Positions 5,405 through 12,982 of a stretch of DNA of 64,000 nt are shown one piece after another. The DNA is from Neodothiora populina (lineage: Eukaryota): NCBI RefSeq assembly GCF_041146345.1, contig NW_027191404.1, positions 2,108,001 to 2,172,000 on the forward strand. The letters run 5' to 3'. The position numbers and the translations under genes were made by a program. Every line of letters starts with the position of its first letter. Within the stretch, counting starts at the first letter, position 1. The notes below the pieces were generated by a model that had not been told where the DNA came from, searched no databases, and worked only from the letters and a program-made list of their open reading frames with translations.

Positions 5405-7770
5405 CTATTCAAATCCGTCTACTGCGGGGTTGGGCCGCTCCATCAACGGACTGCTAGGACTCACTGGCACAGCTCCGAGTGGATCGAAGGATTGAAGAGA
5501 AGGCGCTACACCGCTCATGCTCTTGCGAGGCGATCGGTGTTCTAAGCTCACCTGCTCCATCGTCTCGACCAGGGTGGTGGTCCCATCGTCGGAATTGTTT
5601 CCATCGTTTCGCTGCCAGGCTGGCTTGCTATCCTGAATCGTGCGTTGCAGTGTCTGTATAAAGGAGTTCATGCCCTCAAATGCAAGCGGCTCTGCATCTG
5701 TGCCACTGTATAGCTGGACGGCATTTGCGAGCCTCTGCTCTGCTTGCTTCGGCTTCTCCAGCTTCAGCCATGCGTCTGCGGCCAATGTGTTCCAGAAAGC
5801 AGCCTTCCTGCTCCTGCCACCGCCTTGCCCGTTTGCTGACCCTTGCCTTGCGGAATAGCACGACGCTATCCGTTCCATCACAAGTGCGTGTCCGGTGGGA
5901 CCAACGAGACCGTCGTCGATGATCCTACAGCCCCATCGCGCTGCATCGTCTAGTGCAGATCCGCTTCGTAGTCGCAGAAGTTCGGCACACAGAGCGAGGG
6001 TCCGGAGAGCGTGATATCCTGCATTACATCGCATCAGATAGGAGTGGTATGCATTCTCCAGCTGTTGGTCGATGGTCTCGACTCGCAGTCTGGTGGCAAT
6101 ATGAGGTACACTCATCAGTGTCGTCAGCGCTGCCATCTCATTGGCACCGGCGTAGTACTTCCATGCTTTGTCGTTCTTGAAGTCCGTACATAACAAGTCA
6201 TATGTGCTCTGCGCGAGCTTAAAGTCACGCAGCATGAAGGCGTAGTCGGCAAGCTTCCTCAGCACAGCCTCAGGTGTGTCTGGCTTGTAGGAGCCTCGTA
6301 CCACGTCATAATTGCTGCCCGGCGTTGCAGGGCCCGAGGCGCTTCGACCGGCGAATGGCGTGAAGCGCTTGCTCAGCGACATGAAACGTCCACTGATGCC
6401 CCTGCGGCGAGAGGCGACTTGGTCATTCCACGTGGCAGAAGCTCTTTCCATTCCAGGGATTATTGACTGCGTGACCATCTCGCGAACGAAGGTCCGCACG
6501 CTAGCCGCGTCCGATTCGAATATGTATGGCATCGGGTCGTCCTCATCCTCCATCGCTTCTGCCTTTTGTTAGCGCAAGGATAGATAATGGTCAACGGGGG
6601 CGGCTTGCCTCTGTCTGCAATCTCGGCCAGCTCCTCAGCAGCGGAGACCCATTCGCACTGGGGTAGTGGCATGCTATCGTCGTCAGACGGTAAGCACTGA
6701 TTGCTTTTGAGTCTGAGCAAGTGACAATGAAGACCGAAGTGTCGCTTCATTTGCTCGAAGAGGCTACTGGACTTTTTGATATCGTCGTAATCTTCGTCAT
6801 GGATGAGGACATAATAGCGTAGAAATTCATTATTGACATATTGAGGGAGCCTGTATTCTCCCGTGTTGGAGCCTGTGTAGAGATTGCGAAGCTCCTCGAT
6901 CGGAGCTGGATTGCGAGAGCTGATGGCGATGACCAATGCGACGGGATGGGAAAAGGTCTCGTGTGGCGTCAAGGGCATGCCACAGAGCAGTCTTCGGAGG
7001 TAGAGAGCATAGAAAGGGCTGATTTTGGTAGGGTCGCGGGCCTTGTCCTTGAAGTTCAGATAATCTTGGGCTGCATCTTGTTGCCACTCGGCGTGTGCGA
7101 GATGCCTCTCGACATCTTCGTCGATCTGCGACACATCGCCTCCAGTACGAAGACGAGCGGGACGATACTCGGGCACAATGTCCGAGACAGTAGCTGTCTG
7201 TGCGGGTTGTGTTGCTAGTCTCGGGCTCTCCAAGCCATCTTTGACACCGGTGAATCTGATTCCGAAGTCGTCCCAGGGCCTGCTTGCGCCAGTGCTGTCT
7301 CTTATCACGACTCGCCCTGACACTCGCTCGCCAAAGGGTCGTAAAAGCTCGAGCAGTCCGCCGTTGATGCCCTTGTGGCGCAACAACTCCTCGGTGTCTG
7401 GTGAAGACAGGACGGAAACATGAGGGACAAATCCACGGAGGGTCAGTAGGCGGACTTCGTCTGATTGTGTCGCCGCACCGGGCGACGGAGACCTGAGGCT
7501 GGACGCAGAGTCACGGGGAGAGAAGACGGAGCCTTGGACTACTCCAGCCGTCGGTGTCGCCGGTCCTGAAGCGCTGCTGACATTGGTGCCCGGCAGCGAA
7601 GTTGTGGAAGCAAAGAGGTTGGACAAGGAGGTGTTCGAGCGGCGATAGGGGAGATTGAGCGACGTCAAGGGCGACTTTGCATCTGCGCGACGCGCTCTTG
7701 GAAGAGACAGAGGAGAGTCGGAGATGGACTGCTGCGGCGACTGCAGGGGGTGGGCTGGCGAAGAGGTCAT
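5405..7770 (-). CDS. TRS85: TRAPP III subunit Trs85/TRAPPC8
   Basis: Exons 7770-6609 and 6558-5405 joined by GC-AG intron 6608-6559; motifs HETFSHPVA, FGLHCHLLRL, RKLADYAFMLRDFKLA..Y..DFKNDKAWKYYAGANEM. Start ATG (MTSSPAH, 7770) is inferred. Confidence 0.9.
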
Positions 7771-8219
7771 GAGCGGCGCCGATGTGCCCTCCGGGGATGA
7801 GTTCCAGTGGCTTTTGTCCGGGCGAGCATCAGTAGCAGGATTGCGCAGTTGTCTTTCTACCAGGTCTGACTCAGCCAAGTGCGCGAGAGATTGATCTGTG
7901 GATTCTGGGTCCTAAGGTGGGTGTTTAATTACTTCATGCCGCTGTCACAATAATGCAGTAGTACAAGTGGTGCCTGCCTCTTCCAGCAGTGACACAACAG
8001 ACGCCTGAAACGCCGGCTAGACTTGCCCTAGCGGGGGGGAAGAGGGCAGTTTGGAACTTTCTTGTCGGACTCACATGAAGAACATTGTGACTTTTTGATA
8101 GATCCAAGGTATATGTCAAATACAAGTCTTCGAGTACTCTCTGATATTACCATTAGCAGAAGGCTTTTCAGGTCTTACAAACCAAAGATAGTCCAGAGTG
8201 TACACTGGTAACAGTGTGA

Positions 8220-11200
8220 ATGCTGGCAATCAGAAGATTACCTGTCTCGATTCATACCATACAACACAGGCTCAGATGTGGTAGCAGTCAGAAGTCGGCT
8301 CTACGCTCTCTCACATGCTCAACATTTCACTGCATGCCTTCTGTTGTTCGCTCGCGTACCAGCCTTTCGCCAGAGCGTGAGCTGCATAAGAAACCCAGAT
8401 TCGGCTCATATACCCCCATATGCACACGCTACGCTGCCATGTCGACACAGGATCTTGGTAAGCCGAGTGCTCTCGAACTCACCCATGTGGAGGAGACACT
8501 TCGCAGATTGCTTCTAGACGTCGCAGAGTATATTGATCATCTTCCGCCTACGGATGTGGCCGATGGCCAAGTGACCCTTCCTGACGATCTGGCTAAGCAG
8601 AAGATTGTACTTCGCTTCACAGGTGGATGGGTCCGGGATAAACTGCTCGGTGTGGAGAGTCATGACATCGATGTGGCCATTAACAAGATGACCGGCTTCC
8701 AATTTGGTCTGAAACTCAAGGAGTACCTGGAGATCCCTGGCAACCCGGAGAAGTATGGTCTCGAAGGTGTGGCGAAGAATGATTCACAGTCCAGCAAGGC
8801 TGGTACTACCGGCAAGAACAAAGTCGTAGGCGGTCTTCACAAGATCGAGGCCAATCCTGAGAAGTCTAAGCATTTGGAGACGGTCACTACTAAAATTCTC
8901 GGGCTCGACATCGATTTGGTTAACTTGCGCAAGGAAACTTACTCGGAAGACAGCAGAAATCCGCAGATGGAGTTTGGTACCCCTCAAGAGGATGCACTCC
9001 GCCGGGACGCCACTGTCAACGCCATGTTTTACAACCTGAATACTCAAGTCATCGAGGATTTCACTGGTCAAGGTCATGATGATATGAAGGCAAAGCTCAT
9101 CCGCACTCCGCTCGAGCCCTATCAGACATTCAAGGACGACCCCCTCCGTGTGCTGCGCTTGATTAGATTCGCGAGTAGGCTGGGATATGCCATTGATTCA
9201 GCAGCCGAGGAGTCGATGAAGAACTCCGACATCCAAGACGCACTTCAAGCCAAGATCAGCCGCGAACGTGTAGGCGTCGAGCTGGAGAAGATGCTGCGAG
9301 GGCCTGATCCTTACAGAGCACTTGCCCTTATCGATCGTCTCTCGCTCTATCTGACCATCTTCTCCGACCCTACACAGCCTGCTAACAAAGTCTATCGACC
9401 GGATCTTGACACCTGGACTGCAGTATACGACTTTGTCAAGACGCTGCCCAGCCGGAGCAAGGAGACGCAGAGTAAGCGCGATGCGTATTCGATGGCGGTC
9501 GTGGAGCTAATCAAAAATTCCCAGGTCTGCTTGTTCGTGATGCCGAAGAACAATACGTCGCTTGGCTCCTTACAGCTATGGTACCATACCGCGACGCTCC
9601 CCAGCCTCAAGCCGAGCCTGGAAAGAAGCTGCCTCCACCAGTGGCCGCCAATATTGCGCGGGAAGGGTTCAAAGCCACCAACAAGATCATTGATATTGTC
9701 GTTGCTTCCATCCGTAACCACAGCGAGATTGCAGGGTTTGCGTATGGTATTGGTGAGCGAAGTGGCCGCGCGAACCAAAAGATCGAAGGTGAAGATCATA
9801 TGGCGCGTGACGTTCTGGGCATGGCTATACGTCGGTGGGGTCCTACCTGGAGGTCGCAAGCCATGTTCGCACTACTCGTCAAAGTCGCCGATGAGCCGCA
9901 ATCCGCTAAAGGTGAGTTGACAACCGTTTCCATCATTGTACAGGAAACTTATCAGATATAGCGCACCTTGCTGTCTACGAGACATTCCTCAAACACGTAC
10001 AGGATCTTGGAATCATGGATGCATACGCGACCAAACCGCTACTCGACGGAAAGATGTTAGCTAAAGCACTTTCGACCAAACCCGGTCCTTGGATGAAGGA
10101 CGCCCTCGACGTGGTCATGGCATGGCAGTTGCGTAACCCTGACGGCGCTACAGTCGAAGGAGCGATTGAGGAAGTGAAAAACACAAAGCTTCATGGTGAG
10201 CTCACAGCAAGCCTCGTCACACATTTTCTCAGGCTTACCATTCGCCCTCTGTTTTCAAAGAGTCAGCATCCAGCGGTAACAGCGCAAGGTCGTAAGGTCA
10301 CCACCACCGTGCTTCCCAAGAAGATGTCTATGGAGCAGCCAGATGCCGTCGCAAGGCCTTGGAAAGCCAAAGATGCGCCTGCACTCGATCTACTACCTTG
10401 GATTCTAGAAAGCATCGATGACAGCATGATTGAACAAAACTGGCCTCTTATATTACCTCCGCTATTAAGTATCATTGACGATACAGAGACCATATTTAAA
10501 GCCCAGGGTTGTCACCTGATCAAGCTTCTCCTCAGCCGAACGCCATCGTCATTGGTCAAGCGGACTGGGTTAAACGAGGTTTTCCAAGTGGCACTGATGC
10601 CATGTCTTGGTTACCTGCCTCCCCTGACACCAGAAGACGAGTCTATCGCTCTAATCACCGAGGCCTACCCTGCCCTGATTGCACTGTCGCGGACTTTGGA
10701 CGGTCACGGTCAACAACGAACTCAATCACCAAGCTCCACAGCACCTCGAGTCACACTTCTAGATACTATGATACGGAAAGGCATACTCAACGCATACACA
10801 TATTGTAGTGAAAATGTCAAGATAGTCGAGGCCGTGCTGGATAACATGCCGTCAGTGCTGCAAGAACTCGGCATCGAGAGCGTCAAACACCTCAAGCACA
10901 TCCTTCCCATGTTGTCGGAAGTGCTGAGCGACCCATTCGGCCAGGCGCATCCACCGACCCTACTGGCAGCTACCAAGGCGTTACAAAGTGTGATATTGAA
11001 CGGGTGGCCACGCATGGCATACAATCGAGGGGAAGTTCTCAAGGGTATAACCCTTTGCTGGATTAATCTAGATAAGGAAGAGTCGTCGGATGCGTTGGAT
11101 GCGGTACGGCAAGAGTGCAAGATAACGATTTCGATGCTCAAGGACGCCGTTTCTTCTTCTGAGGATTGTGACATCCAGGCTGATTTCGAGGCGCTTGTCG

Positions 11201-11235
11201 GAGCAGATCCAAGATTTGATGAGCTTCTTCGCTAG
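8220..11235 (+). CDS. CCA1: tRNA nucleotidyltransferase (CCA-adding enzyme) fused in frame to a C-terminal Tti2-like domain
   Basis: Exons 8220-9471, 9525-9911, 9962-11235. Class II motifs GGWVRDKLLG, DIDVA, EDALRRDATVNA, DDPLRVLRLIRFA, KISRERVGVE; CCA tail KPLLDGK..KPGPWMKDALDVVMAWQLRNP. About 345 aa follow without a stop, resembling fungal Tti2 (IRPLFSK..TAQGRK, PWK, WPLILPPLLSIIDD, RTGL..VF..ALMPCL.YLP). Confidence 0.88.
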
Positions 11236-11599: not shown

Positions 11600-12532
11600 T
11601 CACTCGGTCATCACAGCGTCCGCCGCCCCTGCGGTAGAAGACAGACCGAATTTGGCCTCGGCGCCCTCTTTGACAGCATCGGCAAGTACAGTCCTACTCA
11701 AGACCGCAGCTTCAACAGCACGGTCAATAAGACTTTCGGCATCGGCTCCTGCATCTCCTTTCATCCAAAGCTCCGTGACTTCGTCTCTTGATTGCAAATA
11801 GCCCACCACGCAAGCGGCGCGCAGATTGTCGTGCTCATCAGGGCAAGGATCGAGAACCGAGATGTCTTTCTCTGCCGTCTCGTCGTCTGCGAACGTACTG
11901 GCAGCCACACCTCCAGAGACCAGATCCACGCAATCGATGCCCGCATCCACTATTGCCGCGCTTGCAGCAGTGATGCATCCGGCCAGCACGTTCATCATCC
12001 CGACGCCGCCCAGGCTCTGTTTCCTCTCTCCCGCAGTGGGAGCGTTCTCCTCGCCTTCGAGGACCGTAATGACCACTTCGCACGCGCTCTTGGGGAACCG
12101 CTCGCCGATTATGATGCCTCTCAACGCCGTCTCCAGATGTACGCCCAGGTCCCGCTCGGCAGAGTCGCGCAGGTAGCCTCTTCGCTGTTTGCTAGCGAAA
12201 GGCGCAAACTTGACGTGTGTGCTGAGTAGTAAATTGGGACTGAAAGGTGCGGTTCGAGGCAATGGTCGCGGACCGTGGACCGTACATGTCAATTTCAACG
12301 AGCTCGTCCGCGAGGAGAAAGTCGTCATGTTGTCTTGGGGTATTGATGGCTGTAACTCCAAGTATGAGGAACCTGAGGCGGATGGTACCAGGCCGGTGCG
12401 CAGGAAGATCTTGCGAAGATCATTTGGGCCACGAGAGCGAGAGGATTTTGTCTCTATTGCTGTCGGTGTTGATGTGAAGACTGGTGCTGTTGTGCCACCT
12501 GGCGGTGCATTCGTGCGACGGCGGTCTGTCAT
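11600..12532 (-). CDS. MTR3: Exosome RNase PH-like subunit, Mtr3-like
   Basis: Intronless 310-aa ORF; MTDRRRTNAP..IFLRTGLVPSASGSSYLE..CTVHGPRP..HVKFAPFA..RFPKS..ITAASAAIVDAGIDCVD, an RNase PH fold. Confidence 0.85.
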   Translation of the reverse strand: MTDRRRTNAPPGGTTAPVFTSTPTAIETKSSRSRGPNDLRKIFLRTGLVPSASGSSYLELQPSIPQDNMTTFSSRTSSLKLTCTVHGPRPLPRTAPFSPNLLLSTHVKFAPFASKQRRGYLRDSAERDLGVHLETALRGIIIGERFPKSACEVVITVLEGEENAPTAGERKQSLGGVGMMNVLAGCITAASAAIVDAGIDCVDLVSGGVAASTFADDETAEKDISVLDPCPDEHDNLRAACVVGYLQSRDEVTELWMKGDAGADAESLIDRAVEAAVLSRTVLADAVKEGAEAKFGLSSTAGAADAVMTE

Positions 12533-12982
12533 GGCTATGGTGTGAATCGGAATAAATGTTTACATTCATCTCAAGTCCAGCTTGTAATAATCGACAATAA
12601 ATCTACTACAAATGTTCCTTCCCAAATAATGGAGTGAGGTCATGTTTGCACTGGGCCTGTGCTTTGACAATCTTGGCGCCATTGATTTTAATTTTGAATC
12701 TTTCGTCCTTCCTGCTCTTTAAAAGCTTGCAACCTACTACCACTCCTGTTCAACTACAACTTCGGGTCCTCTCAACCTTGGTTCTCTGTGGTCGAGCTCG
12801 AGATGTATATATGAAAGGCATATCACTCGACTGGGAGACCACGGCTGGGTGGCTGGTGTTGCAGTTGGGAGATGTGGCATTGGAGGTTTCTAGCAATTGA
12901 TTTGCGACTCATTTACTGGTGTAGGCTTTGCCTGTGACCGTGTCCTTCTGGTACGTTACTATCTCAACATCCGCATCGCATC

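Follow-up and report, generated by a model that had tools for sequence, protein, structure and literature searches.

Introduction

Among the closest described parallels to the locus reported here are retained coding introns ("exitrons") and the intron-retention isoforms of fungi, such as those of yeast PTC7 and the peroxisomal isoforms of glycolytic enzymes. Two unrelated proteins are concerned: the eukaryotic class II CCA-adding enzyme, which acts in tRNA 3'-end maturation and whose catalytic motifs are defined as GGxVRD..DxD and RRD, and Tti2, a subunit of the Tel2-Tti1-Tti2 (TTT) co-chaperone complex for kinases related to phosphatidylinositol 3-kinase (PIKKs). Here we analyze a stretch of 64,000 nucleotides (nt) from Neodothiora populina (contig NW_027191404.1, positions 2,108,001 to 2,172,000 of the forward strand; hereafter the window), in which a gene at window positions 8220-11235 on the plus strand joins the CCA-adding enzyme CCA1 in frame to a truncated Tti2 homologue. 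A canonical intron of 65 nt lies at the joint, and we favor, with some reservation, the reading that this one gene has two products chosen by intron retention, a plain CCA enzyme and a CCA1-Tti2 fusion.

Results

As read from the sequence, the window positions 8220-11235 correspond to one gene of three exons with two short introns between them. Joining the exons (8220-9472, 9526-9911 and 9962-11235) yields 970 codons with no internal stop, and residues 84-970 of the product align colinearly and in a single piece with a homologue of 905 amino acids (aa) at 62% identity. The first 22 codons of the Tti2 part coincide with a canonical GT..AG intron of 65 nt (10196-10260), a putative exitron recognized by its splice signals, by gaps in contigs of relatives and by its codon pattern; in the window it has the donor GTGAGC, CTTAC at +39 to +43, a pyrimidine tract and AG at +64/65. 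If retained, it would encode the first Tti2 helix (GELT..HFL.LTIRPLF.K), and the remaining truncated Tti2 frame (10261-11235, identified by Pfam Tti2 and closed by a TAG stop at 11233-11235) is in phase with the CCA frame only when these 65 nt are retained. Conversely, virtual splicing of the window shifts the frame, which then meets a stop 11 codons after the junction (TAA, 10293-10295) to give a CCA-only product of 635 aa from Met1. A mini-intron of 37 nt sharing this donor (10196-10232) was considered as a candidate and dropped: its CAG acceptor is not conserved in relatives, and the transcript gap is 65 nt. The window also has an ATG (10193-10195) that ends exactly at the donor and falls into the Tti2 frame after splicing, where it would open a 325-codon open reading frame (ORF) overlapping the final 11 codons of the CCA frame; L001 and L002, the metagenome relatives closest to the window, have the same donor-abutting ATG in their genomic sequence, and the other relatives do not.

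The DNA of relatives was found with a single protein query and sequences were picked by their encoded peptide only, the 27 loci and the window making up 19 distinct sequences. In all 19 the Tti2 part opens with a GGT or AGT codon, then GAG and CT, so that the sequence spells the donor GTGAGC, while codon use in the same ORFs is 23% GGT for Gly, 14% AGT for Ser and 56% GAG for Glu. The T at +41, the synonymous third base within CTTAC, is present in 18 of the 19, as is the AG at +64/65, and the stretch between CTTAC and this AG is pyrimidine-rich. The splice signals are conserved even at synonymous sites. At the protein level, a G, S, C or R (NGT-encoded) followed by E-L occurs at the expected offset in 174 of 190 homologues, and the signature is slightly shifted in nine more. 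Two fusions from Candelariomycetes, P0065 (Pycnora) and P0121 (Candelina), have the same breakpoint and no G/S-E donor signature, and the splice switch may be absent in these two.

The intron appears to be used in two relatives. The contigs L028 and L029, which are 97-100% identical to the genomic sequences L005 and L022, each lack the 65 nt exactly, together with an upstream GT..AG intron of 47 or 50 nt; their genomic counterparts have both, and the missing upstream intron lies at a similar distance from the joint as intron 2 of the window. Because the upstream intron and exactly the 65 nt are both gone, we take L028 and L029 to be transcript-derived. Their CCA frames comprise 636 and 635 codons, respectively, with a stop one codon past the splice junction, and virtual splicing likewise places a stop one codon after the junction in 15 of the 19 distinct sequences. 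Moreover, an annotated alternative isoform of homologue P0072 departs from isoform t1 directly after the joint Gly codon, as use of the same donor would give. The organism of the window presumably splices the same 65 nt. Since the joint intron is spliced in relatives, the fused protein would be at most one of two isoforms, and the CCA1-Tti2 fusion proposed in an earlier sequence-only reading of this locus is to be amended accordingly: the in-frame join is real, but the frame-shifting 65-nt intron at the joint had not been foreseen.

The same 65 nt carry a coding signal. With the splice signals excluded, the share of the commonest base inside the 65 nt is 0.78, 0.86 and 0.58 at the first, second and third codon position, respectively, and the IRPLF motif encoded within them is common to free-standing Tti2 proteins. 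Because these nucleotides evolve as coding sequence, the unspliced form is probably translated. In the homologue alignment no Met column reaches 50% between residues 533 and 871 of homologue P0003, and in the spliced L029 the open Tti2 frame reaches back just 9 nt upstream of the junction, its first Met being codon 52. With no conserved start in the spliced messages, translation would get to the conserved Tti2 residues only through the CCA frame, with the intron retained, and the retained form is probably translated from the CCA1 start.

The part upstream of the joint is a predicted class II CCA-adding enzyme whose catalytic motifs appear intact. Exon 1 (8220-9472) encodes the nucleotidyltransferase head and the RNA-binding domain, for which Pfam returns PolyA_pol (E 8.5e-23, 81.5 bits versus a cut-off of 23) and PolyA_pol_RNAbd (E 1e-5, 25.7 bits versus a cut-off of 22) in the window protein. 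The motifs GGWVRD..DID and RRD are readable in this exon, and the matching columns are invariant in 82 fused homologues. Intron 1 (9473-9525, 53 nt, GTAAGC..GCTAAT..AG) was read from the sequence, its removal giving the colinear homologue alignment, and exon 2 (9526-9911, the body domain) and intron 2 (9912-9961, 50 nt, GTGAGT..AG) were placed by sequence reading and homologue alignment. The beginning of exon 3 (9962-10195) encodes the CCA tail domain, with a short variable linker at its end, and corresponds in alignment to residues 416-480 of 9ns4_A, a solved free-standing CCA enzyme. Head, motifs, body and tail are held in common with the eukaryotic class II enzymes (yeast Cca1; the S. pombe-type cca1/cca2, PDB 9ns2-9ns4; A. 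thaliana, 9kma; human TRNT1, 4x4w), and the AlphaFold2 (AF2) model of P0003, which is 62% identical to the window protein, matches 9kma (E 2.7e-19, target-normalized template modelling score 0.75). The alignment with 9ns4_A (487 aa) reaches its residue 480 at "..EGAIE" of the window protein, and CCA enzymes on this ground normally end near this point; known enzymes end some 7 residues past the aligned "..AIE", whereas the window frame can run 351 codons further. At the other end of the protein, in-frame Met codons 1, 39 and 74 precede the conserved core, and the leader encoded by 8220-8440 is basic and Ser/Arg-rich. It looks like a mitochondrial presequence, an arrangement that resembles dual targeting to mitochondria and cytosol, and yeast CCA1 likewise has several in-frame starts and a presequence-like leader. 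Should the long Met form also keep the 65-nt intron, it would take the Tti2 part into mitochondria with it.

Past the CCA end, the frame was indeed open to 11235, as the sequence-only reading had said: the stop-to-stop ORF of the last exon (9916-11235, 439 codons) includes 351 further stop-free codons, for which the chance is approximately (61/64)^351 = 5e-8. Pfam assigns this extension to Tti2 (PF10521; E 9.6e-77, 258.7 bits versus a cut-off of 25.2), with ORF residues 92-343 covering positions 33-278 of the 279 in the profile; identity to residues 190-571 of A. flavus Tti2 is 32%, and human TTI2 chains are matched at E ~3e-6. Free-standing fungal Tti2 proteins (500-600 aa) typically align only from their residue ~190-200, so the window Tti2 part is truncated at its N-terminus, and instead of the full-length Tti2 architecture we found one in which ~190 N-terminal residues and profile positions 1-32 are missing. 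The extension is, on these matches, a predicted true Tti2 homologue without its N-terminus, in frame with the CCA enzyme. The sequence-only reading had quoted Tti2 motifs, all of which are present in the ORF, and had expected PolyA_pol followed by Tti2, which Pfam returned with both above cut-off; its suggestion that Tti2 lacks its own N-terminus agrees with a profile match from position 33 and an A. flavus alignment from residue 190. The N-terminal piece was sought elsewhere in the 64-kb window by tblastn, with a best E of 1.6, and a protein atlas query with A. flavus Tti2 residues 1-190 gave scores all below 0.9 and no lead.

Compared with Tti2 of the TTT complex (PF10521; human TTI2 in PDB 7f4u, 7ole and 9wjy), the window part belongs to the same sequence family and is modelled as an α-solenoid, but in contrast to free-standing Tti2 it is without profile positions 1-32, without the ~190 residues of Aspergillus, Lecanoromycete and Sordariomycete Tti2, and without its own start codon. 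AF2 models the product of the last exon as an all-helical solenoid with a mean confidence (predicted local distance difference test, pLDDT) of 91.8 and a predicted template modelling score (pTM) of 0.88, and the helix encoded by the 65 nt (model residues 79-97) has a pLDDT of 86-97. VIA-align with this model returned generic HEAT/ARM solenoids at Z 15-19, with no TTI2 chain among the matches listed, and a Foldseek search for TTI2 with the same model gave nothing at E <= 0.001. Several structural alignments begin at model residue 20-40 and cover both the CCA-tail helices and the solenoid. A full-length AF2 model of a homologue (pLDDT 89.3, pTM 0.80), in which the linker is short, is compatible with a compact two-domain protein and is not proof of one.

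The join is conserved well beyond N. populina, as emerged from the survey of related genomes that the sequence-only reading had called for. Among proteins of at least 742 aa there were 158 matches, and both Pfam domains were found in 120/120 of those listed; over 120 gene models, mostly from Dothideomycetes, have the fused architecture. The distance from the CCA tail to the Tti2 start is 32 residues in the window, 6-65 residues in 121 of the 128 fused models measured and 130-221 residues in the other 7. Both sides of the joint are in one frame in 64 of 78 shorter database ORFs, and at the DNA level the frame is stop-free over the joint in 26 of 31 raw metagenome loci. Because more than 120 gene models and 26 metagenome loci share the architecture, the join is not an assembly error. 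One metagenome locus (L019, on a 21-kb contig) has the whole fusion as one uninterrupted ORF of 1016 codons, with an intronless CCA part in which the 65-nt GT..AG unit is kept. In a gene tree the window falls within Dothideomycetes, with Aureobasidium and Myriangiales as its neighbors. Short-junction fusions occur outside Dothideomycetes too, by NCBI taxonomy in Xylona, Sarea, Pycnora and Candelina, and also in Coniocarpon and Chrysothrix, which we take to be Arthoniomycetes. In the gene tree all 35 short-junction rows lie on one side of a branch with a Shimodaira-Hasegawa-like approximate likelihood ratio test (SH-aLRT) value of 83, and an approximately unbiased (AU) test (p 0.485) did not reject placing the four rows from Xylonomycetes, Sareomycetes and Candelariomycetes alongside Eurotiomycetes and Lecanoromycetes. 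The truncated fusion may have arisen once or twice. A search of the literature for this architecture found no paper describing the fusion or the splice switch.

In other lineages the two parts are separate genes, and in the window they form one open frame, the pattern of a fusion of neighbors. Teloschistes chrysophthalmus has them as consecutive genes, _000529 (CCA enzyme, 525 aa) and _000530 (Tti2, 532 aa), and another annotation merges this pair to one model of 1070 aa. The 7 long-junction models, from Aspergillus (four species), Helicocarpus, Fusarium and Thozetella, contain a complete Tti2 (profile 1-279), and in the model from A. indologenus the CCA tail leads straight into the Met1 region of Tti2. 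Because gene models merge CCA1 with full-length TTI2 in these cases (P0307, P0341-P0343, P0261, P0325, P0113 and P0465, including Teloschistes), the two must be very close together there, and a read-through or splice link between CCA1 and TTI2 may predate the hard fusion. Looking up another 20 Tti2 representatives gave 18 named, free-standing proteins, which we assume to come from Lecanoromycetes, Sordariomycetes, Leotiomycetes, Eurotiomycetes and one Pezizomycete, with no Dothideomycete among them. Given the Teloschistes pair, the long-junction models and the A. indologenus model, CCA1 followed by a separate TTI2, close by on the same strand as in Lecanoromycetes, Eurotiomycetes and Sordariomycetes, looks like the ancestral state.

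In the window the gene is flanked by two neighbors on the opposite strand, upstream (6460-7911, minus strand) by a homologue of TRAPP Trs85 (Pfam E 2.6e-69) and downstream (11600-12559, minus strand) by an RNase PH-domain protein (E 4.5e-19).

Discussion

We propose that in Dothideomycetes and allies two neighboring genes, CCA1 and TTI2, came to form one transcription unit, and that, with the intergenic DNA and ~190 N-terminal TTI2 codons lost, what remained of TTI2 would have come to share the reading frame of CCA1. Splicing of the 65 nt would shift the frame, ending the CCA part at the TAA at 10293-10295 and yielding an ordinary 635-aa enzyme; their retention would instead let ribosomes continue through a CCA1-Tti2 fusion of 970 aa. 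The two products would then be made in a proportion fixed by how efficiently the intron is spliced, the tRNA enzyme being abundant and the PIKK co-chaperone subunit rare.

Several points weigh against this proposal. In every fungus considered, the fused polypeptide is a prediction from gene sequence. Both transcript-like contigs are spliced and none was seen with the 65 nt retained, these contigs being assemblies from relatives that show the majority path only, and the sole sequencing run gave one contig of 239 nt (10424-10662) that is probably DNA. The G/S-E signature is lacking in Pycnora, Candelina, Rhizodiscina and Coniosporium apollinis, and where present its residues could be maintained by constraints on the protein. 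Nor are the 19 DNA sequences independent: they are related, with 13 forming one Ser-type group. Finally, a role of the Tti2 part in the TTT complex is not assured, because it lacks the region (human TTI2 1-193) that pulled down TTI1 in published work.

Among the other explanations that we weighed, the one to be taken most seriously, although we think it rather unlikely, has Tti2 made from a shorter mRNA of its own, begun within exon 3 and still containing the 65 nt, on which a Met in the CCA tail (the WMKDALDVVM region) serves as the start, so that the products would be the CCA-only enzyme and a CCA-tail/Tti2 protein of ~380-390 aa, and no large fusion. The last conserved Met columns before Tti2 do lie in the CCA tail (P0003 residues 524 and 532, at 99% and 95%), the frame would need to stay open across the joint just as observed, the exon-3 product is modelled confidently by itself (pLDDT 91.8, pTM 0.88), and the structural alignments from model residue 20-40 take in CCA-tail helices together with the solenoid. 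On the other hand, the conservation of these Met residues is otherwise explained by their position in the CCA tail domain, and such an mRNA would have the same splice sites aboard and would also need to escape splicing. A further alternative is a constitutive fusion, as the sequence-only reading had proposed, in which the 65 nt would be ordinary coding sequence and their splicing rare noise. The open frame, the fact that almost all public gene models are fused and the confident full-length model of a homologue (pLDDT 89.3, pTM 0.80) would suit it, but the retention of splice signals at synonymous sites, the out-of-frame stop within one codon of the acceptor in 15 of 19 sequences, the spliced state of both transcript-like contigs and the divergence of the P0072 isoform at the joint Gly codon make it improbable.

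If the intron were instead always spliced, Tti2 would have to come from an effectively bicistronic mRNA through re-initiation or a non-AUG start after the CCA stop. L029 does combine, on a single contig, the CCA ORF in its spliced state with the complete Tti2 frame downstream, and an ATG abuts the donor in the window (in the Tti2 frame once spliced) and in L001/L002; yet the donor-abutting ATG is not conserved, the first in-frame Met of L029 would cost nearly invariant residues, and the 22 intron codons would never be translated despite their coding-type evolution and the ancestral Tti2 motif within them, so that we give this explanation very little credence. That the open frame is an artifact, either a stop lost by assembly error or a Tti2 frame that is a decaying relic in the 3' untranslated region, can practically be dismissed in view of the same join in more than 120 independent gene models and 26 raw metagenome loci, and of a strong Tti2 match (E 1e-77 to 1e-76) with many nearly invariant columns. 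A choice between CCA enzyme and fusion by retention of the 65-nt intron is the reading that we retain as probable.

What the truncated Tti2 could do bears on how the TTT complex is put together. Pal et al. (2021, PMC8278493) report that a human TTI2 fragment comprising residues 1-193 pulled down TTI1, and that fragment 194-508 was insoluble and did not; a review (PMC10178989) likewise has the TTI1 C-terminus meeting the TTI2 N-terminus. By upstream extrapolation of the alignment, the missing N-terminus would correspond to approximately residues 1-160 of human TTI2, inside the segment 1-193 so reported to bind TTI1. In our proposal the Tti2 part would still work in the TTT complex. A bolder and doubtful extension is that the retained-intron isoform is the only Tti2 source in Dothideomycetes and allies, the helical tail of the CCA enzyme replacing the lost Tti1-binding N-terminal repeats. 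If this were true, the TTT complex of these fungi would have an active CCA-adding enzyme as a physical component, tRNA 3'-end maturation would be tied to the biogenesis of TOR, ATR, ATM and Tra1 by how efficiently one weak 65-nt intron is spliced, and the shared breakpoint would be a rare genomic character uniting Dothideomycetes and Arthoniomycetes with Xylonomycetes and Sareomycetes. Current models of how the TTT complex assembles would be tested by a natural Tti2 that lacks the region reported to bind TTI1.

In more than 100 public fungal genomes this gene is annotated as one protein of 860-1000 aa, a "CCA tRNA nucleotidyltransferase" or "hypothetical protein", labels that hide the Tti2 homologue and probably mis-state the main CCA isoform. 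The locus would be a clear, class-wide case of a frame-shifting retained intron that selects between an enzyme and a fusion of this enzyme to a chaperone subunit, and the splice switch would offer a direct way into the control of the two product levels.

Like Rosetta-stone fusions, the gene consists of parts that elsewhere, in other classes, are adjacent, separate and on the same strand, and that here form one ORF; unlike them, the N-terminal third of one partner has been removed and a putative splice switch left at the joint. With exitrons it shares a GT..AG intron that lies within conserved coding sequence, has a length that is not a multiple of three and would give two proteins by splicing versus retention. 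What sets the locus apart is that the choice would be between a complete enzyme and a version of it joined to a subunit of another, unrelated essential complex, and that the arrangement has been kept throughout a fungal class and even outside it.

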